Below, piece by piece: positions 5,291 to 23,961 of a stretch of 32,000 nt of DNA. Source of the stretch: Candidatus Lokiarchaeum ossiferum (GTDB taxonomy: Archaea; Asgardarchaeota; Lokiarchaeia; Sigyniarchaeales; Promethearchaeaceae); the NCBI GenBank assembly GCA_025839675.1, contig CP104013.1, positions 2,610,001 through 2,642,000 of the forward strand. The letters run 5' to 3'. A program made the translations under genes and the position numbers. The notes below the pieces were generated by a model. The model searched no databases and was not told where the DNA came from. It worked only from the letters and a program-made list of their open reading frames with translations. Numbering within the stretch: the stretch's first letter is position 1; each line of letters opens with the position of its first letter.

Positions 5291-6397
5291 TTATAAATCG
5301 ATATCTAGGTCATCTAAATCATCAATTTTCGATGATTTATTTGAAATAGGGGAATTTGTGTTGGAAATAGCTGCATTATCAGCAGTATCAGGCGTAATGC
5401 CAGCAAGTTTCTGACTTTGGATAACATGAGTTTCAGTACCACCACACACTTCAAGTGATCTCATATAATCTTCATACAAGAGAACAGATTTCTTCAAAGC
5501 TTTAAATAAGGCAACTCGCATCGCTCGCATCAAATCTGCCCCAGTATAACCCAATGTATGGTACAGAAGACCTTCTAAATTTTTTTGTTTTAACTCAGTG
5601 AAAAGAGAATAATATTCAACATCGGTCAGCTCTCGCCCTAACTTCTTCTTTTGAGCATTATATTTATCAATAAGATAATCATATTCCTTTTTTAAAGAAC
5701 TTGTTAAACGCTTATCAATAGAAATTGTTGCTTTTTCAAGCCGAGTCAAAAAAGATTCCATGATTTGCTTCCTTACGATAAAATTAGGGAAAGGAAAGGA
5801 CAAATGATAGGTAAAACGCCGCCATACTGCACTATCTAATTGTTTTTCGTGATTGGTAGCTCCAAAAATTGCAAGAGGGATAGCGTCATAGGATATTTTA
5901 TCAATAATTTGTAAAAAGGAAATAACAGCCCTTTTAATTTCCCCAACTTCGTGTGCATTAGCCCTTTCACCGGTTATAGCATCAATTTCATCAAAAAACA
6001 ACAAAAATACGCCATTTTCCTTAGTGAATTCTGCAGCAAGATCAAACACACCTCTCATGTTTTTCACAGTATCCCCCAGCAATGGAGAAACTAAGCGATC
6101 GGCTTCAACAAGTCCCATTGGAATATCAAATTTCTTTGCCATCGCTCTTGTTAAAGCTGTTTTTCCAGTTCCTGGCGGCCCATAAAGTAACATTGTAAAA
6201 TTAGGAGTAATTTTCGCTTCCGCTAATCGGGGGGCAATATCTACATATTTTTTCAAACTTAAGAAAAAATCAGATAGCATTTCTTTTTTATCTTCTAAAC
6301 CAATGATATCGGTAATTTCTTCTTTAATATCTTCCGGAGTATAAATGGTACCAAATTTTTGAAACCGTTGGCGCATTTCTTCAACTGTAAAGGTCAT
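5291..6397 (-). CDS. operon gene 5: classic-clade AAA+ ATPase with a single AAA module and no N-terminal domain
   Basis: Walker A is LLYGPPGTGKT (GPPGTGKT at 6158-6181), Walker B is LLFFDEIDA, and the second region of homology is GATNHEKQLDSAVWRRF. A TGADL lid motif is present. Only ~65 aa precede the P-loop. The C-terminus is acidic: ...KIDDLDDLDIDL. Confidence 0.92.
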   Translation of the reverse strand: MTFTVEEMRQRFQKFGTIYTPEDIKEEITDIIGLEDKKEMLSDFFLSLKKYVDIAPRLAEAKITPNFTMLLYGPPGTGKTALTRAMAKKFDIPMGLVEADRLVSPLLGDTVKNMRGVFDLAAEFTKENGVFLLFFDEIDAITGERANAHEVGEIKRAVISFLQIIDKISYDAIPLAIFGATNHEKQLDSAVWRRFTYHLSFPFPNFIVRKQIMESFLTRLEKATISIDKRLTSSLKKEYDYLIDKYNAQKKKLGRELTDVEYYSLFTELKQKNLEGLLYHTLGYTGADLMRAMRVALFKALKKSVLLYEDYMRSLEVCGGTETHVIQSQKLAGITPDTADNAAISNTNSPISNKSSKIDDLDDLDIDL

Positions 6398-6425
6398 TTT
6401 TTTTCACTTCTACTACTAAATAATT

Positions 6426-7688
6426 TCAATCTTCTTTTTCAATTCCCAATAACTTTTCAAGTTCATCTACAAGATAAAATGTTAATTTATCAATTGCTTC
6501 AATCTTTCCACCAAGGAAATTAAACAATTCCTTACGATAAGTAGGAGAATCACGAATTTTCGTTCGATCAAGCCGTAAATATTTATCAAAACATAATAGC
6601 TTCATCAAATACGGCAAAATTTTTTCTTCTGTTTTCATATCCAGAAAAAGATTATAAAAAATGTTCTCGTCTGATAACACGGTGTGCAAGACTGCATTGT
6701 AAATAATGAAGGCAAAATTCATTGCAATCCAATTCACTAATTCTTTTGATAAAAAGCCCCTTCGGAAGGATGCTTTGGCAAGATATAAAAGAATTAGAGT
6801 TTCATTGCTAAATTGAGGAATCCAACGCGTTTTTCCATCCGAATCTTCTTGGGCAGCGACATACTTATGATCTTTAGCAAGTTCAATGAATTTTTCTGTA
6901 GGTCCAACAAAAATCCCCATTATTAGTTGTAATTCCATACGTTGAACAATTCGTTTAATTGATTCTTCTTCAGCATTAGCAATAGAATCTATATAAGGCT
7001 CAAATACATCAGAAATCATAATAGTAGGAATTACAAAATCTGGATTTTCTTCTAAATCCATGAAGTTTGGATCCAAATTGAAGAGAGAAGTAATATTATT
7101 AACAATTTGATAGGCTTTTGGGCTTAATCCGGGTACGGTCATTTCTCCAATTTTCTCTCTATAAAATGTTGTTGGCTGCAATAAATATCTCTGAGCATCA
7201 TACCATTCGGGAGAATTTTCAATAAGTTGGCTATAAATATCTTCCAATCGATTTCCTTGAGGAAATAACACTTCAATTAACATATTCGCAAGCTTTCCCA
7301 TAATTGATTCCGATTGTTTATTATAATCATCTTCAGCCAAATCCAATAATACATCAAAGGCTTTTAGCGCTTCATCAATAAAATCAAGAATATAATCTCG
7401 AATATCTTGCAAATTAAATTCAGAGTCTTCTTTTAATTCTTCGATATAATTAATAATGTGGCGATAAATTTCATTTCGGAAAAAAGCATTAAATTCTGTT
7501 AAGGATTTGACATTTTTTACCTTTCTTTTAGATTCTTCCTCCAAAATTTCCTTCAAGTTATCGATGTTTCCAAGTTGCTCCAAATCTAAATCAAGAATAG
7601 TTCGTTTGGTTTCATGAAGTAACGGTTGAATAATTGAAATGTAAGTCTTATAATACGCAACAATATCTTCCCATCTTTCTCGTGCCAT
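6426..7688 (-). CDS. operon gene 4: hypothetical helical protein, distant paralog of gene 3
   Basis: 420 aa. AGGAG lies 9 nt upstream of the ATG. I recognise no motif. Its C-terminal half aligns by eye with gene 3 (see findings). Confidence 0.85.
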   Translation of the reverse strand: MARERWEDIVAYYKTYISIIQPLLHETKRTILDLDLEQLGNIDNLKEILEEESKRKVKNVKSLTEFNAFFRNEIYRHIINYIEELKEDSEFNLQDIRDYILDFIDEALKAFDVLLDLAEDDYNKQSESIMGKLANMLIEVLFPQGNRLEDIYSQLIENSPEWYDAQRYLLQPTTFYREKIGEMTVPGLSPKAYQIVNNITSLFNLDPNFMDLEENPDFVIPTIMISDVFEPYIDSIANAEEESIKRIVQRMELQLIMGIFVGPTEKFIELAKDHKYVAAQEDSDGKTRWIPQFSNETLILLYLAKASFRRGFLSKELVNWIAMNFAFIIYNAVLHTVLSDENIFYNLFLDMKTEEKILPYLMKLLCFDKYLRLDRTKIRDSPTYRKELFNFLGGKIEAIDKLTFYLVDELEKLLGIEKED

Positions 7689-7718
7689 GATTTTTTCTCC
7701 TAATAAGTTTTAAAAAAA

Positions 7719-8846
7719 TTAATCAATATCTGAATCCCCCGAAACAGTTACTTCTTGGAATATAGAGCTGATCTCGACAAAAATAGGAATTTCCACACGA
7801 CAGAGGTTTCCTAAAACCCACTTATTAACATCTTTTATTAAGAATCGTGTTTGAAGATGTAACCGTTTTTGTGCATCACTTTTCTCAATTTTATCATACC
7901 ATTTAGAGGCACCTAATCTGAATGCGACAATTTCAATGGTGGCGGGTAGTAATTCTGTCAACACATTTTTCATCATCCAACTTTTTGGAATAACACTCAT
8001 CATCCCAGCATCAAATCCAGGATCTCGCAAAATAGGACTGTCTTCGGCCAATTTTACTTTGGGCATAAAGCTGAGTATTAATATAAGAGCAAAAATGGCG
8101 CAAATACCATTTATTTTGTAAGGATCTAAAGAATATCGATCAATTGCAAATCGTGCCAGAAAAAGAGCAGTAAAAACATTTTTATCAAAATCATCATTCA
8201 CCATTGTTTCGCCCTTTTCTGTTCGGATAACATAGGATCCTTCTAATAATTCAAGGATTTCTTCAGGAAAAGTATAAAATCGGACAACTTTTTCTTCACT
8301 TCGGGCCAGATCATGCTTAAAGATCCGCTCTTCCACCACAAGTCCCAAAAAATCGGCAATCTTATCCAATTGCTTTTGAATAGTTTTACGGGGTTTTTCG
8401 GGATTGCCAAACATAGCAAAAAAAGCGTAATCCGAGATTCGGAAATTTTTGGATTTTTTGAAGGCTTCAATTATGCGATCCACAATTGGTCCTTCCTTAA
8501 AAGATCCAAAAGATTTTGATTGGGATGCAATGAATCCATTGATAAGTTCGTTAATAACAAAAGAATTTTCGTGTTGTTGTTCTAGAGTTTTTAACACTTT
8601 AGCATAGGCTTCTCCTAAACTGGAAGTTCGAGGGAAGAATGAATTTTGAATCGATTCATCAATACTTTTTACCATTAGTTCACCATTATCCTTGGGAAGA
8701 TATCGTTTTAATTCCTCAAATCGGCGAATTAACTGATCTTTTGCCCCAGGAATGTTGTCAATATCTCTTTCTTTAATAAATTCGAGAGATTTGTCCAATG
8801 CCGTTGTAAAATTGCCTAATAATTCATTCCATAATGCCATTGCCAT
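7719..8846 (-). CDS. operon gene 3: hypothetical protein, distant paralog of gene 4
   Basis: The track ORF starts at TTG 8891 and overlaps gene 2 by 35 nt. The ATG at 8846 (MAMALWNELL...) is preceded by AGGTG about 8 nt upstream and lies 10 nt after the gene 2 stop, so I prefer it. The protein ends ...VSGDSDID. Confidence 0.82.
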   Translation of the reverse strand: MAMALWNELLGNFTTALDKSLEFIKERDIDNIPGAKDQLIRRFEELKRYLPKDNGELMVKSIDESIQNSFFPRTSSLGEAYAKVLKTLEQQHENSFVINELINGFIASQSKSFGSFKEGPIVDRIIEAFKKSKNFRISDYAFFAMFGNPEKPRKTIQKQLDKIADFLGLVVEERIFKHDLARSEEKVVRFYTFPEEILELLEGSYVIRTEKGETMVNDDFDKNVFTALFLARFAIDRYSLDPYKINGICAIFALILILSFMPKVKLAEDSPILRDPGFDAGMMSVIPKSWMMKNVLTELLPATIEIVAFRLGASKWYDKIEKSDAQKRLHLQTRFLIKDVNKWVLGNLCRVEIPIFVEISSIFQEVTVSGDSDID

Positions 8847-8856
8847 TTTATTACAC

Positions 8857-10083
8857 CTAATTTTTGTTAGATTCTTTATGTCGAGTCTCAATTTTTTTTA
8901 CGTGATTTAATAATTCTGTTTTTTTCATTCGTACCAAGGCCGTTTTGTTGTACTCGTTTGTTTCATCATTATCTAAGATCCAATGAACTATATCGACTTT
9001 CTTTGTCCGAATATAAGGTACTTCAGTAGAAGGACTAGATTTCTGACTTACAGATTTAGATTTGGTAGATTTTTTAAGAGATATTTGGTGAGCTTTAGCA
9101 TCTTCTTCTGCTTTCTTAGGATCAATTCCCTTCGCTTTCTGCCATTCAAGTTTCATCGTTTTCAATGCTTCAATCAATAATGGCACATGTTCCTTTTCAT
9201 AAATATTGGGAGACATCACACCTTTCTTGGTTTCCCAACGCAAACCTTGTGTATTGCCTAACGAATATTCGGTTGTCATGTAACGCTGTAAATTTCTTTG
9301 CCACCAATAAAAGCGCAACCATTTTTTTTCAGGATTTTCTTTCGCATAGATGGTGACTAATGCTTTCCAATCAGCCATAGTGGACCGAACACTAATTCCA
9401 TAGCTGGGAAGATAGAAATTTACAGGAAAATTTGTAGAGTAACTTAAAGGAAGTGCTTCTGAAGGATAATCAAATATTGGATGTCCTTCATCCAATACAA
9501 TGATTTCTCCACAACGTTCACATTCATAATATCGCTTGTTCTTACTTTTCTTCATCTTCCATTTACATTTTGGACAGATACGTTTCTTTAAATCAAATAC
9601 AAAATATTTATCTTCAATACCTGCACGTTCTGGAATCGGATCAAAGCTTATGGTGACATTTTCCTTAGGATTAAAATTCTCATCAAAATCTTCATTAATT
9701 CGGTTAAGGACAATCAAAATATTTTCTAATTCTTCAAAACTATCTATTTTGAACATCCCTGCATGGACATTGATCGATTTTTTCCACCATGAAATTCGCA
9801 GATATTTAATATTAGGAAAGTTGGGAGAATGACACATAAGTACAGCAATCCACCACTTGTCACGTTCTCTGGCAACAGTGATCCCAGAATCAGCAACTTC
9901 CCACTTAGGATTGAGGGCAGTATTCTTCATGAAAAATTCCCCATCTTTCAAAATAGATTCTTGGACTTCTATTTTTTCTTCTTGTATCAGACCACGAAAG
10001 ATTTTCCTACAATTAGAACAGTTCATTACCCCAGGTACAAGTTCTACTAACTCCCCAATCCCACAGCTCGGACATTTTGTCAT
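8857..10083 (-). CDS. operon gene 2: protein with two zinc-ribbon plus Trp-rich-domain modules and a basic linker
   Basis: Ribbon 1 is CPSC..x14..CSNC (aa 4-25) and ribbon 2 is CPKC..x14..CERC (aa 170-191). Each is followed by a ~90-aa domain containing DKWWIAVL...YLRISWWKK or DWKALVTI...WLRFYWWQR. A K/S-rich linker and a small helical C-terminal domain follow. Confidence 0.85.
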   Translation of the reverse strand: MTKCPSCGIGELVELVPGVMNCSNCRKIFRGLIQEEKIEVQESILKDGEFFMKNTALNPKWEVADSGITVARERDKWWIAVLMCHSPNFPNIKYLRISWWKKSINVHAGMFKIDSFEELENILIVLNRINEDFDENFNPKENVTISFDPIPERAGIEDKYFVFDLKKRICPKCKWKMKKSKNKRYYECERCGEIIVLDEGHPIFDYPSEALPLSYSTNFPVNFYLPSYGISVRSTMADWKALVTIYAKENPEKKWLRFYWWQRNLQRYMTTEYSLGNTQGLRWETKKGVMSPNIYEKEHVPLLIEALKTMKLEWQKAKGIDPKKAEEDAKAHQISLKKSTKSKSVSQKSSPSTEVPYIRTKKVDIVHWILDNDETNEYNKTALVRMKKTELLNHVKKIETRHKESNKN

Positions 10084-10145
10084 ATTTGATCAGTTTCTCA
10101 CTTTAAAATTAATATTTTTTTATTCTCAGGAAAAATAGATGTTGT

Positions 10146-11300
10146 TCAATCATCGTCATCATCATCAAGTCCTTCTTCAATTATTAATCGCTCTACATCT
10201 AAATTTATTATTTTTAATTCCTTCTTGGAATAATCTGCCAGGGTTGTGCTGATTTGTTTTAACGCGTTCCGAGCTTCAATTAAGAGATTTTTAATGATTT
10301 CTGAAATATTATCTTCATCATAGGTAGATTTTGTAATAAAAGTCATATAGGGCATAATTTGTTTTTTACCAGAATAATATGCGCGTAATTTATCCATTTT
10401 TGCATTTATTTCATCAAAAGTTAGCTTTAAACCAATTAGGATGTTGAATGTATTTCTCCATTCTTGATATTCTTCAGGTATTTCATCCTTTGGAAATTCG
10501 ACCCGGAATTTTGAAGATAGAGATTTTTTTCGGGATTTTTCCTGAAGATATTTAAGAAAATCCGTTTTTTTCAAGTCCTTTGCCTTTCGGAATTTCTTCA
10601 TCATTGTCGATTTATAAATTTCTTTATCATACAACCCCAGATAATCATTCAAATCTTGTTCAATTTCCGTGTATTTATCCGCCATAGCTCGAATCATAAT
10701 TTCGATTCGTAAAGCTTGATAGGGATTTCCAAGTTCCTCTATTATATAATAAAAATCATCATCGATAACATAATAATCGCCGTATTTATGAACTAATTCA
10801 TGAATAACGGAAGTTTTAGGACACATCATTGCACGCAACCTTTCCAATGATGCATGAATGCGAACTTGAGTCATTTCCCTTATATCGGGGACAATCACTC
10901 GTTCTAAGAGATTTTCTTGGAAAAATATATGTACTTCTTCTTCCGATTCAGATAGTTCTTCTCGGGCCAATTTAAGCCCACTCGCTAACCGAATTTTGAT
11001 ATGATCCCCTTTCATTTGAAAAACAGAGTGATTTTTAATGTTTGTAATAATGTGAAATTGAAATAGAGATTTTATTAAGTCTGGAGAGCAAATTCGCCTT
11101 AGATCCCCCGCAGTGGGTTCATCGACGTCCATAATGGTTTCAAATTCATCCATCAAATCATCGTCCAAAAGATCTTGAAATAATTCTTTCCGTAAAATAA
11201 ACATGTAAAGAGCAACGTATCGGAGATCGGGAGAATCAAAGACATCTTCTAACAATTCCCTATCATATTCCATTTCCAAAGTTTTATGTTGTTCAGCCAT
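10146..11300 (-). CDS. operon gene 1: hypothetical acidic protein with an HExxH motif and a hexa-Asp C-terminus
   Basis: The track ORF starts at TTG 11312. The ATG at 11300 (MAEQHK...) has GGTGG 5-6 nt upstream. It contains SVIHELVHKY (HELVH at 10788-10802) and ends EEGLDDDDDD. Confidence 0.82.
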   Translation of the reverse strand: MAEQHKTLEMEYDRELLEDVFDSPDLRYVALYMFILRKELFQDLLDDDLMDEFETIMDVDEPTAGDLRRICSPDLIKSLFQFHIITNIKNHSVFQMKGDHIKIRLASGLKLAREELSESEEEVHIFFQENLLERVIVPDIREMTQVRIHASLERLRAMMCPKTSVIHELVHKYGDYYVIDDDFYYIIEELGNPYQALRIEIMIRAMADKYTEIEQDLNDYLGLYDKEIYKSTMMKKFRKAKDLKKTDFLKYLQEKSRKKSLSSKFRVEFPKDEIPEEYQEWRNTFNILIGLKLTFDEINAKMDKLRAYYSGKKQIMPYMTFITKSTYDEDNISEIIKNLLIEARNALKQISTTLADYSKKELKIINLDVERLIIEEGLDDDDDD

Positions 11301-11468
11301 TAGAACCACCAAGGGGAAATACCACTAATTTGCGGTAGAGGTCGTAAAAAAGATAAGTTGGTTAATGTTTATTTACCAAAAAAGTTTTCGTTTTTGACAA
11401 TAAGACAACGGTGTAGCTAAAGGTAAAAACTTTGAAAATCAACAAAAACTAATTTTAATTGAAAACCT

Positions 11469-18035: not shown

Positions 18036-18656
18036 ATGGGTAGACGAAAACGAAAGAAAATAACCTATCGCCCGGTAAGATCATTGCCTAAAATCTTTAC
18101 ATGTCCGAAATGTGGACATAAGACTATGAAAGCAAACTTGAAACATGCAGAAGATCGAGTGTTAATAGTTTGTGGGCATTGTGGAGAACAACAAGCAGTA
18201 GGAAAACATGAATTAACCGAACCCGTTGATGCTTTCGGTGATTTTATTGATATTTATTATAAAGATCAAGAATATGAACGATTAACCAGAAGAGAAGAAA
18301 AATTACTGGAAAAACAACAATATTCTGAATTAAGTCTAGTTTATTCCTTTCTCAGCGACACTGCACAAATCAATGCGGATAAAGCCCTTGAAGAGTATGA
18401 GTTAAATAAAGATCCGGAAGATCTTTCTAACGCTGAACAATGGCAAGAAACCGCCCGTCAATATAAAGAAAATGAAAAGAAATTAACTGAACAGTTGAAA
18501 TCTGGGGTGATTGTCGACGCTGAGCTTGAAGACGAAGTTTATGACGAAATTGAAGACAATCCCTTCGATGAAGGAGAAGCGAAGATTTCAGAAAAACCGA
18601 AACGGAAATCCAACATCGAAGATGTCTTGGGTGATTTAGGTTTCTTAGAATTTTAG
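18036..18656 (+). CDS. elf1: transcription elongation factor Elf1 homolog with a long acidic C-terminal extension
   Basis: MGRRKRKK...FTCPKCGHKT...VCGHCGEQQAV..HELTEPVDAFGDFIDIYY parallels eukaryotic Elf1: a basic N-tail, a C4 zinc ribbon and the L(S/T)EPVDVYxDWID block. About 130 additional E/D/K-rich residues follow. Confidence 0.85.
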   Translation: MGRRKRKKITYRPVRSLPKIFTCPKCGHKTMKANLKHAEDRVLIVCGHCGEQQAVGKHELTEPVDAFGDFIDIYYKDQEYERLTRREEKLLEKQQYSELSLVYSFLSDTAQINADKALEEYELNKDPEDLSNAEQWQETARQYKENEKKLTEQLKSGVIVDAELEDEVYDEIEDNPFDEGEAKISEKPKRKSNIEDVLGDLGFLEF

Positions 18657-18798: not shown

Positions 18799-19257
18799 AT
18801 GGCAGAAGAATTCTTCAATACAATGAACACATACTCTGAGCAGCCTTTAAAAGAACGCGTGGAAGGTTTAGCTGATGTGATTGAGAAAATCATGTCGATA
18901 ACATTAAAAATTCCAGAGATGACAGATGCTTCAATTCAAATCTTAAACTCAAGTATAACAAACCTGTCAACCAAAGTTTCAAGCATTGAGGCACGATTAA
19001 ATCAATTGGATTCAAAATTAACAACATTACAATCTTCCGGGGGAATTGCTGCCCCAGCAAATGGATCTGCACCACCACCACCTCCAGGAAGAACTCCTGG
19101 ATCTCCACCACCTCCCCCTGGAAGAGCCCCTCCACCTCCAGGCAGAGCCCCCCCTGCTCAAGCACCAGCAAATCCTGTATCACTTCGTGGAAGTATAATG
19201 GATGAATTGAAAACTCTGTTTAGTAAGCGTCGAACTGATGACGATGATGATGATTAA
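18799..19257 (+). CDS. coiled-coil, polyproline, amphipathic-helix, hexa-Asp protein
   Basis: 152 aa. The N-terminus is heptad-like (ITNLSTKVSSIEARLNQLDSKLTTLQ). Next comes APPPPPGRTPGSPPPPPGRAPPPPGRAPPAQAP (nt 19051-19176), a GC-rich island. Then SLRGSIMDELKTLFSKRR (19177-19236) and a terminal DDDDDD (19237-19254). Confidence 0.85.
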   Translation: MAEEFFNTMNTYSEQPLKERVEGLADVIEKIMSITLKIPEMTDASIQILNSSITNLSTKVSSIEARLNQLDSKLTTLQSSGGIAAPANGSAPPPPPGRTPGSPPPPPGRAPPPPGRAPPAQAPANPVSLRGSIMDELKTLFSKRRTDDDDDD

Positions 19258-19307: not shown

Positions 19308-20222
19308 ATGGAAGATTCTCACTTAACCCCACCACATCCGAAGCCGGAATTTATTCCTCAAGTGAGTCTTCTTCAAATTATTGGATATTTTTTCTTTATT
19401 GTGGCAATTTGGGCAATACCTATTGCAAGCGTACTGATGTTAGGTATTATTTACATTAAACGAGTATTGATCCCAGATATCCAGATCTATGCAAATCCAT
19501 TATTGGTAGTTCAAAATGCATTTAATGGAAATGTAAAATTTCTTCTTATATCTCTCGCTACTCCAGCAGGAATATTGTTACTTTACTTATTTGAACTATT
19601 TTTAGTGGCTCTATTGACAAAAATATTCATTGGATACTGTAATTATCTCTCTCCAGAAAAAGAAATGGTGGGAGCAAAGGGTTTAGGAGGAGATGAACAA
19701 CGAGATGTGGACATATATCATTTACGTGGAGCTATTTATCGGATTATGAAATGGATTTTTGCACGATGTCCTTTTCCCTGGTTAATAAAATGGGCTTTTT
19801 CTTTTGCAGGAAACAACAAATATGGAAAGGGAACTGTGCTTGAGGATCAATATTATTGTCAAGAATTCTTTGAAACTGGAGAAAATGTCTATATAGACAA
19901 ATTAGCAATTGTTAGTTCCCATTTAGTAGAAGGAGCATATGGAGCAATTACTTTAAAGAAGGTTCATGTTGGAGATAATTGTGTCATTGGGGCTAACGTC
20001 GGTGTTTCACCAGGGGCATTTATGGAACCAAATTCTGAAATTGTGAATAATTCCATGGTTCCCAAGTTTAAGAAGTTCAAGTCTGGGGCAAAATATCATG
20101 GGATTCCCGTAAAAAAAATGAGTCTTGAAGAATATGAACAATTATTACATTTAACGACAACGGATAAATCAAATCCCGCTAATATTAAACAAATTCAACA
20201 GAATGAAACAGAACAAAGGTAA
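19308..20222 (+). CDS. membrane-anchored hexapeptide-repeat (left-handed beta-helix) protein, type A, copy 1
   Basis: The track start is TTG 19299, with an ATG at 19308. Two N-terminal TM helices are followed by PFPWL and imperfect hexapeptide repeats (GKGTVLEDQ...GENVYIDKLAIVSSHLVEGAYGAITLKKVHVGDNCVIGANVGVSPGAFMEPNSEIV). Confidence 0.8.
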   Translation: MEDSHLTPPHPKPEFIPQVSLLQIIGYFFFIVAIWAIPIASVLMLGIIYIKRVLIPDIQIYANPLLVVQNAFNGNVKFLLISLATPAGILLLYLFELFLVALLTKIFIGYCNYLSPEKEMVGAKGLGGDEQRDVDIYHLRGAIYRIMKWIFARCPFPWLIKWAFSFAGNNKYGKGTVLEDQYYCQEFFETGENVYIDKLAIVSSHLVEGAYGAITLKKVHVGDNCVIGANVGVSPGAFMEPNSEIVNNSMVPKFKKFKSGAKYHGIPVKKMSLEEYEQLLHLTTTDKSNPANIKQIQQNETEQR

Positions 20223-20231
20223 CAGAAAAAA

Positions 20232-21434
20232 ATGTCGAGTACAGTACCAACAACATTACGGGCTGGTCCCGCAACAACAAATACATTGGCGTCACAAAGT
20301 TTTACTGCAATATATGGACTGATCATATGGTTAGCTTTAATTCCATGCTTCTTTCTAACCACCAAACTAATTACATTATTTGATGATACCCTTCTTTTTA
20401 TTGCCCTGATTTTACCAATCTTTATATTCCTAATCTATTTTATTTTTTTTGTTTCAGTAATTCTTTGGTCTGCGGTAATTCTCAAAACAGTTAATTTGAT
20501 TCATACTCCCAAGGAAGGAATTTTTCCACGAGATAATAAAAACCGCGATTATAAATTCTGGAGTTTACGAGCAGTAATAAAAAAATTTCCATTATGGGTG
20601 TGCCATAATGTCGGTCCCTTCCCATGGACTGATGTTTTTGCTATGAAAGTATTTGGAAATCATGTGACCTATAAGTCTCCAGTGTTTGATGCTTGGGTTG
20701 ATGCAGAATTCATGGATATCGGACGGGGCACAACTATCGGTCAAGGGGTGGTTATTATGACATCAATGATCACTACCGACTTTTTAATAATCAAAAGAGT
20801 AAAAATTGGCAAAAATGCGGTGATTGGAGCGCATTCGGTAATATCACCTGGAACAAAAATAGGAGATAATGCCATTATTGGAGCTTTAAGTGCCACTGAG
20901 ATTGACCAGGAAATAGAAAGTGATTTTGTGTATATGGGGAATCCGGCAAGAAAAATCCGAAAAGCTGCATTCAAAATTAAAGATGAGCTATCGGCCCATG
21001 AACGAGCCCTTCAGAAGAAATATGATGAAATTAAAGCGAAAATTCCTGAAATTGAGCCAAAAAGACATATTGTCGGTACTAAAGCAAGTTTGCAATTGCA
21101 TAAAAGTGAATTCAAGGAAAAACGAGCGATGCATCACGAAGAAAAAGCATATGTTAAACAAGCTAAAGCGAAATCCAAAGCTCGTAAAAGTGAATATAAG
21201 ATTGAAAGACTACAATTTAAAGCAGATAAGCATATTTATAAAGCAGAAAAGCAGAAATATGAATCCATTTTAGCTATGCAAAAAGCTCAGCGGGCAATTA
21301 ATGAAAAGATCGAAAAAGATCGCCATAAATTGCAAAAAATAGAAAATACGGAGAGAGAGAGAGAAATCAAAGATAAACGTCATATAACTTTCCGATTAAA
21401 AAAGAAATCAACCGAAACTAAGGCGGAAGAATAA
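20232..21434 (+). CDS. membrane-anchored hexapeptide-repeat protein, type B, copy 1, with a K/R/E-rich coiled-coil tail
   Basis: The conserved N-peptide MSSTVPTTLRAGPATTNTL is followed by 2-3 TM helices, FWSLR...PFPW, and LbH repeats (IGRGTTIGQGVVI...VKIGKNAVIGAHSVISPGTKIGDNAIIGALS...YMGNPA). A ~160-aa charged tail follows. The start lies 9 nt after the A1 stop. Confidence 0.85.
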   Translation: MSSTVPTTLRAGPATTNTLASQSFTAIYGLIIWLALIPCFFLTTKLITLFDDTLLFIALILPIFIFLIYFIFFVSVILWSAVILKTVNLIHTPKEGIFPRDNKNRDYKFWSLRAVIKKFPLWVCHNVGPFPWTDVFAMKVFGNHVTYKSPVFDAWVDAEFMDIGRGTTIGQGVVIMTSMITTDFLIIKRVKIGKNAVIGAHSVISPGTKIGDNAIIGALSATEIDQEIESDFVYMGNPARKIRKAAFKIKDELSAHERALQKKYDEIKAKIPEIEPKRHIVGTKASLQLHKSEFKEKRAMHHEEKAYVKQAKAKSKARKSEYKIERLQFKADKHIYKAEKQKYESILAMQKAQRAINEKIEKDRHKLQKIENTEREREIKDKRHITFRLKKKSTETKAEE

Positions 21435-21502
21435 GTTTTCTTTTTTTTTATTTACAACCAAATGCTTTTTTAATTCGCTTAACTTTAAATTACTCGATTT
21501 TC

Positions 21503-22417
21503 ATGGAAGAAGCGGGTGAAGAAAAACAAACAAATTCAAATTCTTCACAAGGATTTATTCCTCGAGCCAGATTAGAATTGGATAAATATTTTATTGTTAT
21601 TGTGCTTATATGGGGATATTCTTGGCTTATTCCAGTTGCGATTCTTTATCAGTACTACAATTTATTAATTCAACCAGACCTACACATTTATGCTAGTGTC
21701 ATCCAAATTTTTTCTTCTGAAAAATACATTTTAGTTTTTTTTCTTTCCCCAGTTGTTCTTATTGGACTTTACCTATTTAGGTTGTTTTTCGTAATTTTGT
21801 TCAGTAAAATTGCAATTTGGTTATGCAACCTCCGATCTCCCATGAAAGAATTAATTGCATCAAAGGGAATTGGGAAGGAAGAAGCAAGAGACATTAATAT
21901 TTATCATCTAAGGGGGATGATCCTTAGGATATTAAAATGGGAAATCAGTAAATCTCCTTTTCCATGGTTAGTTCCTGCAGCGTTTAACTTTGTGAATGTG
22001 AGTGAAATTGGTAAGGGAACCACTTTGGAAGATCAATTTTACACGCAAGAATTTCTCGAAACGGGAGAAAATGCATATATTGGCCAAGGATCAATAGTTA
22101 GTTCGCATTTGGTTGAGGGAAAATATGGCGCAATCACTTTGAAAAAAGTTAGAATTGGTCAAAATGCAGTTCTTGGACCATTTAATCCAATTTCTCCAGG
22201 AGCTTTGATAGGAGACTATGCTGAATTCTTACCAATGAGCGGAGTTGCTAAATTTCAAAAAGTTCGTGGATTTTCAAAATATTATGGGCTCCCAGTTGCG
22301 AGAATCAGTACCAAGCGATATATTAAAATGTGTCAAATTCCCCCAGAATTAGAATTTCGCGTTCGAGACACAAAATTATTAAAAAGAAAAGTTAAAAAGA
22401 AGAAAACGGAAGAATAA
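21503..22417 (+). CDS. membrane-anchored hexapeptide-repeat protein, type A, copy 2
   Basis: Collinear with 19308..20222 and roughly half identical by eye, e.g. IYHLRG..L.I.KW......PFPWL, GKGT.LEDQ.Y.QEF.ETGEN.YI, IVSSHLVEG.YGAITLKKV. Confidence 0.85.
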   Translation: MEEAGEEKQTNSNSSQGFIPRARLELDKYFIVIVLIWGYSWLIPVAILYQYYNLLIQPDLHIYASVIQIFSSEKYILVFFLSPVVLIGLYLFRLFFVILFSKIAIWLCNLRSPMKELIASKGIGKEEARDINIYHLRGMILRILKWEISKSPFPWLVPAAFNFVNVSEIGKGTTLEDQFYTQEFLETGENAYIGQGSIVSSHLVEGKYGAITLKKVRIGQNAVLGPFNPISPGALIGDYAEFLPMSGVAKFQKVRGFSKYYGLPVARISTKRYIKMCQIPPELEFRVRDTKLLKRKVKKKKTEE

Positions 22418-22421
22418 CATC

Positions 22422-23594
22422 ATGTCAAGTAGCATCCCAGCCAGTTTAAAATCTGGACCGAGCACAACAAATACTTTAGTTTCCAAAGGATATTTAGTAA
22501 TCTATTTCATTATAATGTGGTTGTCTATTATGCCTCCATTTCTACTAACTTTGATATTTCTTGATAACTTTAAAATTGAAATGGTATATCTTCTCTGGAG
22601 TTTTCCCTTATTTTTAATAATTGGATATCTTGTTTTATTTTTCTCGGTGATTTTTTGGTCTTGGGTAATTTTAAAGGTCGTAAATTGGATCCATCCTCCA
22701 AAAGAAGGCGTGTTTCCACGTGAAGCAAAGAATAAAGATTTCCGATTTTGGAGTTTAAGATCGGTGATTAAGAAACTACCGCTTTGGATCTCCCACAATT
22801 CCCCCATACCATGGGGAGATTCCATCGCATTTAAGTTGTTTGGGAATCATGTTTCCATGAAGACACCGTTGTTTGATGCTTGGATCGATGCAGAATTCTT
22901 AGAAATAGGTACAGGGACAACGATTGGTCAAGGTGCAGTAATCATGACTTCAATGATCACCGTGGAATTTCTAATCATAAAACCGGTCAAAATCGGAAAG
23001 GATTGTCTCATTGGAGCTCACTCCGTTGTATCTCCAGGAACTCAAATAGAAGATCAAGTTATTTTGGGAGCATTAAGTAGTACGACTTTAGGGCAACACC
23101 TAGAGAGCAGCTGGGTTTATTGGGGTAATCCAGCCATAAAATTTAAAGAAATGGCATTTAGAGAACGTGATACATTATCTCCTGAAGAAAGAGCGAAAAT
23201 GAAAAAATATCGAGAAGTCACCGAAGAGTTATCGGATACTGCGGAATTAAAAGGTCGTAAAAGTGCGAAGGCGTTTATTCAAATTCAAAAGAGTGATTAT
23301 AAGGAGCGAAAAGCCTCAAGATTGCAGGCAAGATCAGATTATCAAAGATCAAAAGCCGCATATAAGGCACGTAAACTTGAATTACGCGCAGACAAGAAGC
23401 AAATTAGAGCAGAAAAACAAAGCTTTGACTCATTACGTGCTTTAGAAAAAGCTAAACTTTCGTTGGAAGCAAAAATTCAGAAAAACCGTAGTAAATTAGA
23501 TAGCATCGAAAAGAAAGAATTTGAGAAGGAATCGAAACGATTAGAAAAAAAAAGACTCAAAAAAGAGCGAAAACTGCAACATCATCAAAAATAA
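22422..23594 (+). CDS. membrane-anchored hexapeptide-repeat protein, type B, copy 2, with a K/R/E-rich coiled-coil tail
   Basis: Collinear with 20232..21434, e.g. MSSSIPASLKSGPSTTNTL, PKEG.FPR, FWSLR.VIKK.PLW, FDAW.DAEF..IG.GTTIGQG.VIMTSMIT, IGAHSV.SPGT, GNPA. It has an equivalent charged tail. The start lies 4 nt after the A2 stop. Confidence 0.87.
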   Translation: MSSSIPASLKSGPSTTNTLVSKGYLVIYFIIMWLSIMPPFLLTLIFLDNFKIEMVYLLWSFPLFLIIGYLVLFFSVIFWSWVILKVVNWIHPPKEGVFPREAKNKDFRFWSLRSVIKKLPLWISHNSPIPWGDSIAFKLFGNHVSMKTPLFDAWIDAEFLEIGTGTTIGQGAVIMTSMITVEFLIIKPVKIGKDCLIGAHSVVSPGTQIEDQVILGALSSTTLGQHLESSWVYWGNPAIKFKEMAFRERDTLSPEERAKMKKYREVTEELSDTAELKGRKSAKAFIQIQKSDYKERKASRLQARSDYQRSKAAYKARKLELRADKKQIRAEKQSFDSLRALEKAKLSLEAKIQKNRSKLDSIEKKEFEKESKRLEKKRLKKERKLQHHQK

Positions 23595-23691: not shown

Positions 23692-23961
23692 ATGAGCCTT
23701 GATAATTTTGGAGTGAAGAGCACTCGGAAAAAAACCGACCCAAAAAAGAAAAAAAACACAACTCCGGTGAAGAAGAGAAAAAAAGAGTCCATAGCTCCAA
23801 ATACTCCTTCTCCCAAAGTGGCGAATACGAGAAAAAAATATTTCCTTAAATGTTCGACAAAGTGTGGCTATAAAAGGACTTTAAAAAAACGTTCTCTTTC
23901 TGATAATGACTACACGTGTCGCAAGTGTGGAGCATCAATGAAATTATATAAGGAAGAATAA
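23692..23961 (+). CDS. small basic protein with a C-terminal C4 zinc ribbon
   Basis: 89 aa. The N-terminal half is Lys-rich and probably disordered (RKKTDPKKKKNTTPVKKRKKE). It ends CSTKC...x16...CRKC. Its stop is 2 nt before the next ATG. Confidence 0.7.
   Translation: MSLDNFGVKSTRKKTDPKKKKNTTPVKKRKKESIAPNTPSPKVANTRKKYFLKCSTKCGYKRTLKKRSLSDNDYTCRKCGASMKLYKEE

Follow-up and report, generated by a model that had tools for sequence, protein, structure and literature searches.

Tandem hexapeptide-repeat membrane proteins of Candidatus Lokiarchaeum ossiferum are probably subunits of a split acyltransferase widespread in Asgard archaea

Introduction

A stretch of 32,000 nucleotides from the genome of Candidatus Lokiarchaeum ossiferum (GenBank assembly GCA_025839675.1, contig CP104013.1, positions 2,610,001 to 2,642,000 of the forward strand; hereafter the window) contains, in the interval 19308-23594, four consecutive genes for membrane-anchored hexapeptide-repeat proteins of two types, A and B, each of which is present twice in the order A-B-A'-B'. 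A sequence-only reading of this locus had likened the four proteins to the membrane modules in epsilon-poly-L-lysine synthetase (Pls). This raises the question of what such proteins do as stand-alone polypeptides in an archaeon, and what their likeness to Pls means.

On balance, we regard it as probable that A/A' and B/B' are subunits of a split, membrane-embedded and cytoplasm-facing acyltransferase of the left-handed beta-helix (LbH) type, a pseudo-trimer of one A and two B subunits (1A:2B) with one active site. Such a split membrane LbH acyltransferase, which is uncharacterised, is probably widespread in Asgard archaea. The evidence comes from profile comparisons, from structure models of B and of a natural fusion, from the gene content of 78 Asgard loci and from the distribution of a single histidine.

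Results

Two protein types in an old tandem duplication

All four open reading frames (ORFs) are co-directional. As read from the sequence, 9 nt separate A from B and 4 nt A' from B', while the two pairs lie 68 nt apart. A and A' are 45% identical over 272 aa (BLASTP, E 3e-79), B and B' 50% over 370 aa (E 2e-139), and the two types are related to each other (A/B 26% over 195 aa, E 8e-14). The array, its spacing and the paired similarity are therefore as first described, and the motifs listed at that time were all found again, namely PFPW or PIPW, GNPA, GIPV or GLPV, and the block FWSLR...FDAW.D.EF..IG.GTTIGQG. A, A' and B' are identical to L. ossiferum proteins (Table 1); B would be NEF87_002203, as deduced from the locus numbering, and its first 260 residues are 98% identical to a protein in another L. 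ossiferum assembly. At the DNA level, the sole surviving match between A and A' is a core of 168 nt with 71% identity (19823-19990 and 22009-22176), and the duplication is therefore old. A neighbour-joining tree of B modules, too crude for dating, places the divergence of B and B' before the split from a related metagenome-assembled genome (MAG), in which a 12-kb contig holds both B paralogues. As syntenic loci elsewhere hold a single A-B pair, the tandem arrangement A-B-A'-B' is peculiar to Lokiarchaeum and its near relatives.

Homology to the Pls/PosA module

TIGR02353, the family of Pls and delta-poly-L-ornithine synthetase (PosA), is the best NCBIfam match of all four proteins. The scores of 31.6 (A, E 5.7e-8), 70.9 (B, E 7.1e-20), 36.7 (A') and 50.5 bits (B') stand against a curated cutoff of 423.1 bits for a 695-position model of three modules; the match of B covers residues 66-259 and thus the second transmembrane (TM) helix, the linker and the LbH domain. 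Our reference set comprised seven Pls-type proteins, three of which (P0234, P0255, P0265) were scanned and confirmed as members of TIGR02353, with 570-605 bits and an adenylation domain. In profile-profile comparison with hhalign, the B family aligned with module 1 of Pls/PosA over 149 columns (probability 99.6, E 1.5e-23; B residues 89-246), starting just after TM2 and including the post-TM strand and both linker helices. The A family aligned with module 3 of Pls over 179 columns (A residues 71-271), TM2 included. Both families matched soluble maltose-acetyltransferase-like proteins over 87-96 columns (B 87) of the LbH domain only, and the A and B families matched each other with E 1.7e-26.

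As judged from these comparisons, the likeness to the TM-TM-LbH module of Pls is real and exceeds generic hexapeptide similarity. Kinship with the Pls-type module thus stands as proposed, but the proteins are not members of TIGR02353; the module architecture is present, as seen in the AlphaFold2 (AF2) model of B and in hhalign, and three tandem modules per polypeptide are not. In Pfam, hexapeptide repeats were the only match. With the Hexapep model (PF00132, gathering threshold 27 bits), the LbH domains of B (40.3) and B' (35.6) were confirmed, and A (22.8) and A' (23.1) narrowly miss the threshold.

After TIGR02353, the next NCBIfam matches of B are heptaprenylglyceryl-phosphate, WcaF, maltose and galactoside O-acetyltransferases (E 2e-12 to 9e-9), and the best solved folds in a Foldseek search with the B model are maltose/galactoside O-acetyltransferases (E 1.9e-6, TMt 0.58, 169 columns). 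This search and a PDB sequence search with B returned only soluble LbH enzymes and carbonic anhydrase (CA) subunits of complex I, and no Pls-like solved structure was found among their results. In addition, the C-terminal GNPARKIRK is of a type that is common to CoA-using LbH enzymes, and a three-module relative (locus L006) lies in a dTDP-sugar/glycosyltransferase operon. All this would suit ordinary O- or N-acetyltransferases of the maltose/galactoside/WcaF type that use acetyl-CoA and are tethered to the membrane; A and B would then form homotrimers that acetylate a sugar, a glycan or a lipid head group, and the likeness to Pls would reflect shared ancestry without mechanistic meaning. However, the homology to Pls spans TM2 and the linker, elements that soluble acetyltransferases lack, A and B are always adjacent and often fused (B-A-B, B-A, A-B), and homotrimers of B would lack the usual general base, the histidine being missing in all B modules (see below). 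We considered this simple homotrimeric reading, ranked it low and regard it as unlikely. A place among the maltose (MAT) or galactoside acetyltransferases (GAT) proper was rejected as well: the four proteins have two TM helices each and no match to the Mac domain (PF12464) in Pfam, B has no histidine, and the NCBIfam scores of 23-36 bits are far below the cutoffs of 314-347.

A further LbH class came up through weak NCBIfam and PDB matches to gamma carbonic anhydrases and complex-I CA subunits (E 1.6e-7 and 1.3e-7), from which membrane-anchored, gamma-class CA-like proteins might be proposed. Gamma-CAs have a zinc site of three histidines on adjacent LbH coils. In the aligned stretch, as read from the sequence, B has one histidine (IGAHSV) and A none (IGANVG), which does not agree with the three-histidine pattern. 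Moreover, the matches are confined to some 60-75 residues of generic LbH coils and fall far short of those to TIGR02353, with 31.2 bits for B and 19.2 for B' against a cutoff of 250. We rejected this assignment and consider it extremely improbable.

Module architecture and membrane topology

Each of the four proteins corresponds to one module, which consists of two long TM helices, a strand, two helices and the LbH domain, as seen in the AF2 model of B (residues 1-250, pLDDT 83.8, pTM 0.79) and in the hydropathy of all four. Two or three TM helices had been counted at first; two of them hold and the third does not. The order of elements in B is helix 22-49, helix 54-90, strand 96-99, helix 105-127 and helix 133-140, followed by beta coils, with residues 50-53 connecting TM1 to TM2. 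A literature search on TIGR02353, on cryo-EM structures and catalytic residues of Pls and on Asgard hexapeptide membrane proteins turned up only the PosA paper and reviews. In its element order, B matches the published description of the PosA model (PMC10522769). A Pls/PosA module has a TM pair, then a strand and two helices, and finally an LbH of some five turns. The linker region of B aligns with module 1 of Pls and not with soluble acetyltransferases.

In A, the hydrophobic segments comprise residues 14-56 and 74-112, and the loop between TM1 and TM2 contains neither K nor R in A and A'. The two segments almost abut in B and B', where the loop has only a few residues, and a K/R-rich stretch follows TM2 in all four proteins. 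By the positive-inside rule, all four LbH domains and the tails of B and B' are predicted to lie in the cytoplasm, as in Pls. A joint complex is thus topologically possible, as had been supposed, since no LbH domain is predicted on the opposite side of the membrane.

The N-terminal peptide of type B, which had been singled out as conspicuously conserved, fully deserved this remark. M1, S2, P6, G12, P13, T15 and L19 are invariant in 15 diverse homologues, nearly all tblastn matches across the 78 loci described below start at query residues 1-6, and the peptide is kept in B-type subunits (By, see below) sampled from other Asgard loci. The C-terminal tail has a narrower distribution: B proteins of the window lineage carry about 150 extra residues, 46-50% of them charged, while By proteins of other lineages have about 285-305 aa, so that the long tail is restricted to one lineage. 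It is partly conserved between B and B' (BLASTP), and the tail of B matched no Pfam family in a scan at E <= 10.

These appendages might suggest a mainly structural membrane anchor, in which the tail and the N-terminal peptide of B recruit cytoplasmic partners (e.g. the upstream proline-rich protein) and the LbH domain serves as an oligomerisation scaffold, with catalysis lost or secondary. Non-enzymatic LbH scaffolds exist, for instance dynactin p25/p27. A long, charged tail without family match and a strictly conserved, unstructured N-terminal peptide would be in keeping with this, as would the gene order Elf1, proline-rich protein, A, B, zinc-ribbon protein, which is kept in the window and in about nine fetched loci, several MAGs among them. 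Yet the long tail is found in one lineage only and the gene order is confined to close relatives, and the histidine of A with its surrounding acidic motif, kept in nearly every A module as shown below, argues for retained catalysis. We regard a mainly structural role as highly improbable and return to the acyltransferase.

Sets of one A and two B modules in Asgard archaea

Searching 1.84 billion representative proteins with a profile of the B core gave 5763 matches at E <= 1e-3, 657 of them at E <= 1e-10. The best 150 matches yielded 146 sequences first seen in that search, comprising 78 one-module, 22 two-module and 8 three-module proteins without parts of a nonribosomal peptide synthetase (NRPS), 9 proteins of NRPS size and 29 fragments. 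Among the 117 proteins no shorter than 200 aa, 113 contain at least two hydrophobic TM segments. The source labels include Promethearchaeota/Lokiarchaeota, Helarchaeota, Hodarchaeota, Nanoarchaeota, Elusimicrobia, Wallbacteria and chytrid fungi, among others, and the Wallbacteria member is a true Pls-type NRPS. The stand-alone configuration, which had been taken to be unusual, is standard in Asgard archaea, where protein clusters number in the hundreds; what is new is the recognition of a so-far unnamed family, not stand-alone modules as such.

When the B profile was run against GTDB species genomes, 78 loci were obtained, each of which bears the label Promethearchaeota (MAGs with Hod-, Hermod- and Odin- labels among them) or "uncultured archaeon"; this taxonomic range is partly due to construction, as the patterns were specific to B. 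According to ORF and hidden Markov model (HMM) annotation, 32 loci consist of exactly three adjacent genes in the order A-B-B, 8 have extra A-type hits followed by B-B, 11 have repeated or mixed sets (e.g. A-B-B-A-B-B), 9 a fusion plus B, 11 only A-B, and 7 are cut by contig ends. At least one A and two B modules are therefore present in 60 of the 78 loci (32 A-B-B, 9 fusion plus B, 19 extra or repeated). The middle gene of the A-B-B operons encodes a distinct subtype (Bx) and the last one By, with the same N-terminal peptide as B and B' of the window; the genes of these A-Bx-By operons overlap or almost abut. Instead of the four modules that had been thought to assemble in trans, comparative genomics thus points to three-module units of one A and two B. 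Two or three A-type hits precede the two B genes in L031, L034, L039, L044, L045, L047, L048 and L056.

HMM classification of multi-module matches revealed natural fusions of both types: B-A-B (P0137, 797 aa), B-A (n = 8) and A-B (n = 3). Two contigs, one of 8.2 kb and one of 149 kb and each from a different MAG, encode the B-A-B protein. In L009, a separate B-type gene lies 3 nt behind a B-A fusion, and in L010 a B-type gene adjoins a B-A fusion. The AF2 model of all 797 residues of the B-A-B protein (mean pLDDT 78.7, pTM 0.78) has six long helices and three LbH units, with low confidence only at the N-terminus and in the linkers; a pTM of this size would imply that the three modules are placed with confidence relative to one another.

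In the Lokiarchaeum/Promethearchaeum lineage, only one B type, the one with the long charged tail, is found next to A. A search for a third subunit with Bx named neither L. ossiferum nor P. syntrophicum among the best 120 of 441 matches.

A candidate catalytic histidine in one module of three

A-type modules contain the motif [ST]-H-x-V-[ED]-G, and its histidine is present in 99 of 100 modules from the 78 loci and the window when aligned to one HMM. The same column holds no histidine in any of 76 Bx and 87 By modules (0/163 in total). In B and B' of the window, MTSMIT (B residues 176-181) takes the place of SSHLVEG. All seven Pls-type proteins have the histidine in module 3 (LQTHLFEDRVMK; THLFED motif) and never in modules 1 and 2, and four of five bacterial or unlabelled three-module proteins have it in one module. 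Two-module proteins usually have it in both, an example being P0189 (L007, 58-1614), a two-module protein of the Hodarchaeota type with the conserved histidine in each module. From the pattern of one module with and two without histidine, which is common to the Pls and Asgard sets, we infer that there would be one active site per pseudo-trimer, supplied by A. In a hand alignment with the E. coli galactoside acetyltransferase (LacA), the A-type histidine falls within two residues of His115, the catalytic residue of that enzyme.

Absence of loading domains

A domain scan found no AMP-binding or PP-binding domain in the four proteins or elsewhere in the window. Adenylation and thiolation domains were likewise missing among the called genes listed for the syntenic and other fetched loci and among the ten commonest neighbour families of the 78 loci (Pfam), in agreement with what had been noticed for the vicinity of the array. 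In other Asgard lineages, 29 of the 69 loci with downstream sequence (among L012-L089; e.g. L039, 5921-6706) have a co-directional carbon-nitrogen hydrolase gene (PF00795) no more than 300 nt beyond By; it is absent from the window. The hydrolase is a possible functional partner of A-Bx-By, and its adjacency gives a weak hint of amide chemistry.

In Pls and PosA, a diamino acid is polymerised into a homopolymer with isopeptide links. Amide chemistry would fit a Pls-like amino-acid polymerase that is loaded in trans by free-standing adenylation and carrier proteins and whose homo-poly-amino acid exits via the TM bundle, and so would the homology to the Pls/PosA module with its shared pattern of one histidine module and two others. 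However, no loading domain was found in the window, the listed loci or the recurrent neighbour families, the genome beyond the window not having been searched. In addition, carrier-protein systems are uncommon in archaea, and the system behaves as a conserved core feature of an archaeal group, unlike a patchy secondary-metabolite gene. We therefore consider such a polymerase improbable and the acyltransferase without loading domains the better account.

Genomic neighbourhood and features of the window

Elsewhere, the window is archaeal in character (GatD/GatE, Elf1, Lsm; about 33% GC). The gene order Elf1, proline-rich protein, A, B, K-rich zinc-ribbon protein recurs in L002-L004 and in six GTDB loci (L012-L016, L020), among them those of P. 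syntrophicum and Harpocratesius repetitus; each of these loci holds a single A-B pair, and the order is limited to close relatives. The features of the array are listed in Table 1. The 68-nt spacer between B and A' may divide the array into two bicistronic units, and its T-runs and TTTAAAT element, by inference only, could act as archaeal terminator and TATA element. A bacterial promoter/terminator scan, which is unsuited to an archaeon, gave counts not above shuffled expectation.

Table 1. Positions of the genes and protein features of the A-B-A'-B' array in the window
Feature	Position	Strand	Remarks
Gene A	19308-20222	+	304 aa, ATG start; A-type TM2-LbH subunit; 100% identical to P0121 and NEF87_002202
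Gene B	20232-21434	+	400 aa; B-type (By subtype) TM2-LbH subunit, long charged tail
Gene A'	21503-22417	+	304 aa; paralogue of A; identical to NEF87_002204
Gene B'	22422-23594	+	390 aa; paralogue of B; identical to NEF87_002205
SSHLVEG motif of A, His205	19914-19934	+	candidate catalytic histidine; alignment column
SSHLVEG motif of A', His202	22100-22120	+	alignment column
N-terminal peptide of B, MSSTVPTTLRAGPATTNTLA	20232-20291	+	predicted cytoplasmic, unstructured (pLDDT <50, residues 1-10)
TM helices of B, residues 22-49 and 54-90	20295-20501	+	AF2 secondary structure, hydropathy
Module-specific linker of B	20502-20666	+	strand 96-99, helices 105-127 and 133-140; FWSLRAVIKKFPLW and PFPW motifs; AF2
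LbH domain of B	20667-20966	+	Pfam Hexapep 40.3 bits
C-terminal tail of B	20967-21431	+	K/E/R-rich, 155 aa, 46% charged
Spacer between B and A'	21435-21502	.	68 nt; T-runs and TTTAAAT element (sequence reading)
N-terminal peptide of B'	22422-22481	+
C-terminal tail of B'	23154-23591	+

Directly upstream of A (18799-19257, +) lies a gene of a 135-152-aa protein family, which was also found in L001 (6589-7032), L002 (6472-6879) and L003 (6540-6974). At the N-terminus, its members have a coiled coil (MAEEFF..SYSE.PLKERVEGL.DVIEKIM); PPPPPG repeats lie in the centre, and the conserved C-terminal VSLRGSIMDELKTLFSKR(K/R) is similar to an actin-binding motif of the WH2 type. A Pfam scan of this proline-rich protein and of the zinc-ribbon protein at E <= 10 gave no meaningful family and no WH2 match. 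As polyproline-based actin nucleation machinery has so far not been found in Asgard archaea according to a paper on Asgard gelsolins (PMC9433394), the proline-rich protein may be a candidate for profilin or actin binding.

Further upstream (18036-18656, +), the Elf1-type zinc-ribbon transcription elongation factor homologue is extended at its C-terminus by an acidic stretch of about 125 aa with GD.GFLEF at the end, and this extension is kept in P. syntrophicum, in Harpocratesius and in other MAGs. Directly downstream of the B-type gene, the window lineage encodes a small protein (23692-23961, +) whose N-terminus is rich in lysine and whose C-terminus holds a CxxC...CxxC zinc ribbon; in lineages where B-A(-B) are fused, the small zinc-ribbon protein at this position is a different one and has a TM helix. 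An AAA ATPase and then four proteins of about 390-420 aa without Pfam match are encoded on the opposite strand (5291-11312, -). This block adjoins the Elf1 gene in P. syntrophicum and other MAGs, and at the same junction the window holds an insert of 6.7 kb with YCII, methyltransferase, ABC-2 transporter, ArsR, DsrE and phosphatase genes.

Discussion

The proposed acyltransferase would have the architecture of the C-terminal domain of Pls and PosA, with six TM helices and three LbH units, but it would be made of separate polypeptides without loading domains. In each 1A:2B unit, the three LbH units would pack as a classical LbH trimer over a six-helix membrane bundle, with the single active site at an interface of the histidine-bearing A subunit. 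The donor would be an acyl or aminoacyl group on a pantetheine thioester, most likely a CoA thioester, which is the most economical guess because LbH acyltransferases and Pls both use pantetheine thioesters and no carrier domain is present. A donor bound to a carrier protein is unlikely, given that adenylation and thiolation domains are missing from the window, the listed loci and the ten commonest neighbour families. The group would then be transferred to an amine or hydroxyl acceptor that is held at the membrane bundle or threaded through it. In the Lokiarchaeum/Promethearchaeum lineage, B would be used twice per unit, and L. ossiferum would possess two paralogous sets from the old tandem duplication, assembled either as A.B2 and A'.B'2 or as a mixed A.B.B'. 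The tight gene spacing, with 9 and 4 nt in the window and overlaps in A-Bx-By operons, fits co-assembly.

Several points weigh against this model. For the window lineage, with its single B type for each A, the 1A:2B composition would be an extrapolation from other lineages. The distance between the Asgard proteins and Pls is large: the fused B-A-B protein scores only 54 bits with TIGR02353 and slightly more, 63 bits, with a soluble MAT-type model. Moreover, the A family is overall no nearer to module 3 of Pls (E 3e-13) than to module 1 (E 4e-17); its link to module 3 comes from the histidine motif, not from overall similarity. One active site per complex is not universal, because two-module proteins of the Hodarchaeota type hold the histidine in both modules and the three-module protein P0216 in all three. 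As to the histidine itself, no published mutagenesis of this residue was found in the literature searched, we know of no experiment showing a catalytic role of this residue in Pls, and the suggested equivalence with His115 of LacA is a matter of hand alignment only. The pTM of the B-A-B model would be only an indirect sign of packing. Finally, the data identify neither donor nor acceptor.

Compared with Pls and PosA, the system has the same succession of TM pair, strand, two helices and LbH, profile-profile homology that includes the linker and TM2, and soluble parts in the cytoplasm; most Asgard relatives also have three modules per unit, one of them with the histidine. In contrast to the fused three modules of Pls and PosA, there is one module per protein, adenylation and thiolation domains are absent in cis and nearby, and the TIGR02353 scores of 32-71 bits compare with a cutoff of 423. 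The histidine module is first or in the middle in the Asgard gene or fusion order and last in Pls, B of the window has an added charged tail and a conserved N-terminal peptide, and the host is an archaeon.

With the soluble LbH O-acetyltransferases of the MAT, GAT (LacA) and WcaF type, which provide the nearest solved structures, A and B share the LbH fold with preceding helices, the C-terminal end of the type GxPA[KR]xI[KR] and, in the hand alignment mentioned above, the approximate position of the A-type histidine. Those enzymes, however, are soluble homotrimers with three identical active sites, whereas each Asgard subunit has two TM helices and the subunits are of two or three distinct types, the majority of which lack the histidine. 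Three-module TM2-LbH proteins without NRPS parts also occur in bacteria (P0203, 680 aa; P0179, 683 aa; P0210, 960 aa). They resemble the Asgard proteins in module type, in the absence of adenylation and thiolation domains, in having TIGR02353 as best match below the cutoff (168-184 bits) and in the restriction of the histidine to one module; they differ in being single polypeptides, one of which is encoded in a dTDP-sugar/glycosyltransferase operon. As they are uncharacterised, they add nothing on function; this operon hints at glycoconjugate acylation. The protein concerned is P0203 (L006, 7001-9043), with GroES/GroEL as neighbours; its host carries no taxon label and is presumed to be bacterial from the neighbourhood. 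P0210 is a fusion of a short-chain dehydrogenase to three TM2-LbH modules.

A bolder proposal, which we offer as a speculation and think rather unlikely, is that the Asgard A-Bx-By genes encode a free-standing, carrier-protein-independent membrane machine in which the thioester-driven formation of an amide or ester bond at one histidine site is coupled to passage of acceptor or product through the six-helix bundle. This machine would be the unfused, ancestral form of the polymerisation domain of Pls and PosA, it would make or decorate a surface polymer or lipid of Asgard archaea, and the A-B-A'-B' array of L. ossiferum would be a derived form of it.

To our knowledge, the polymerisation domain of Pls and PosA has no solved structure and no defined catalytic residues, and it has so far been treated as an NRPS-like curiosity. 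The data presented here show that a much larger, unnamed family is built from its module. Asgard archaea usually encode the three modules in separate genes and thereby offer a natural split system in which the roles of the subunits are separable. This arrangement also suggests an origin of the bacterial and fungal enzymes by fusion of three subunits and a subsequent capture of adenylation and thiolation domains. The histidine motif [ST]-H-x-V/F-E-[GD], present in one module per unit, is nominated as the active site in both the Pls and the Asgard systems. For the biology of Asgard archaea, our findings point to a conserved, often multi-copy putative membrane complex that the two cultured strains, P. 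syntrophicum and L. ossiferum, both possess and that is therefore open to experiment.

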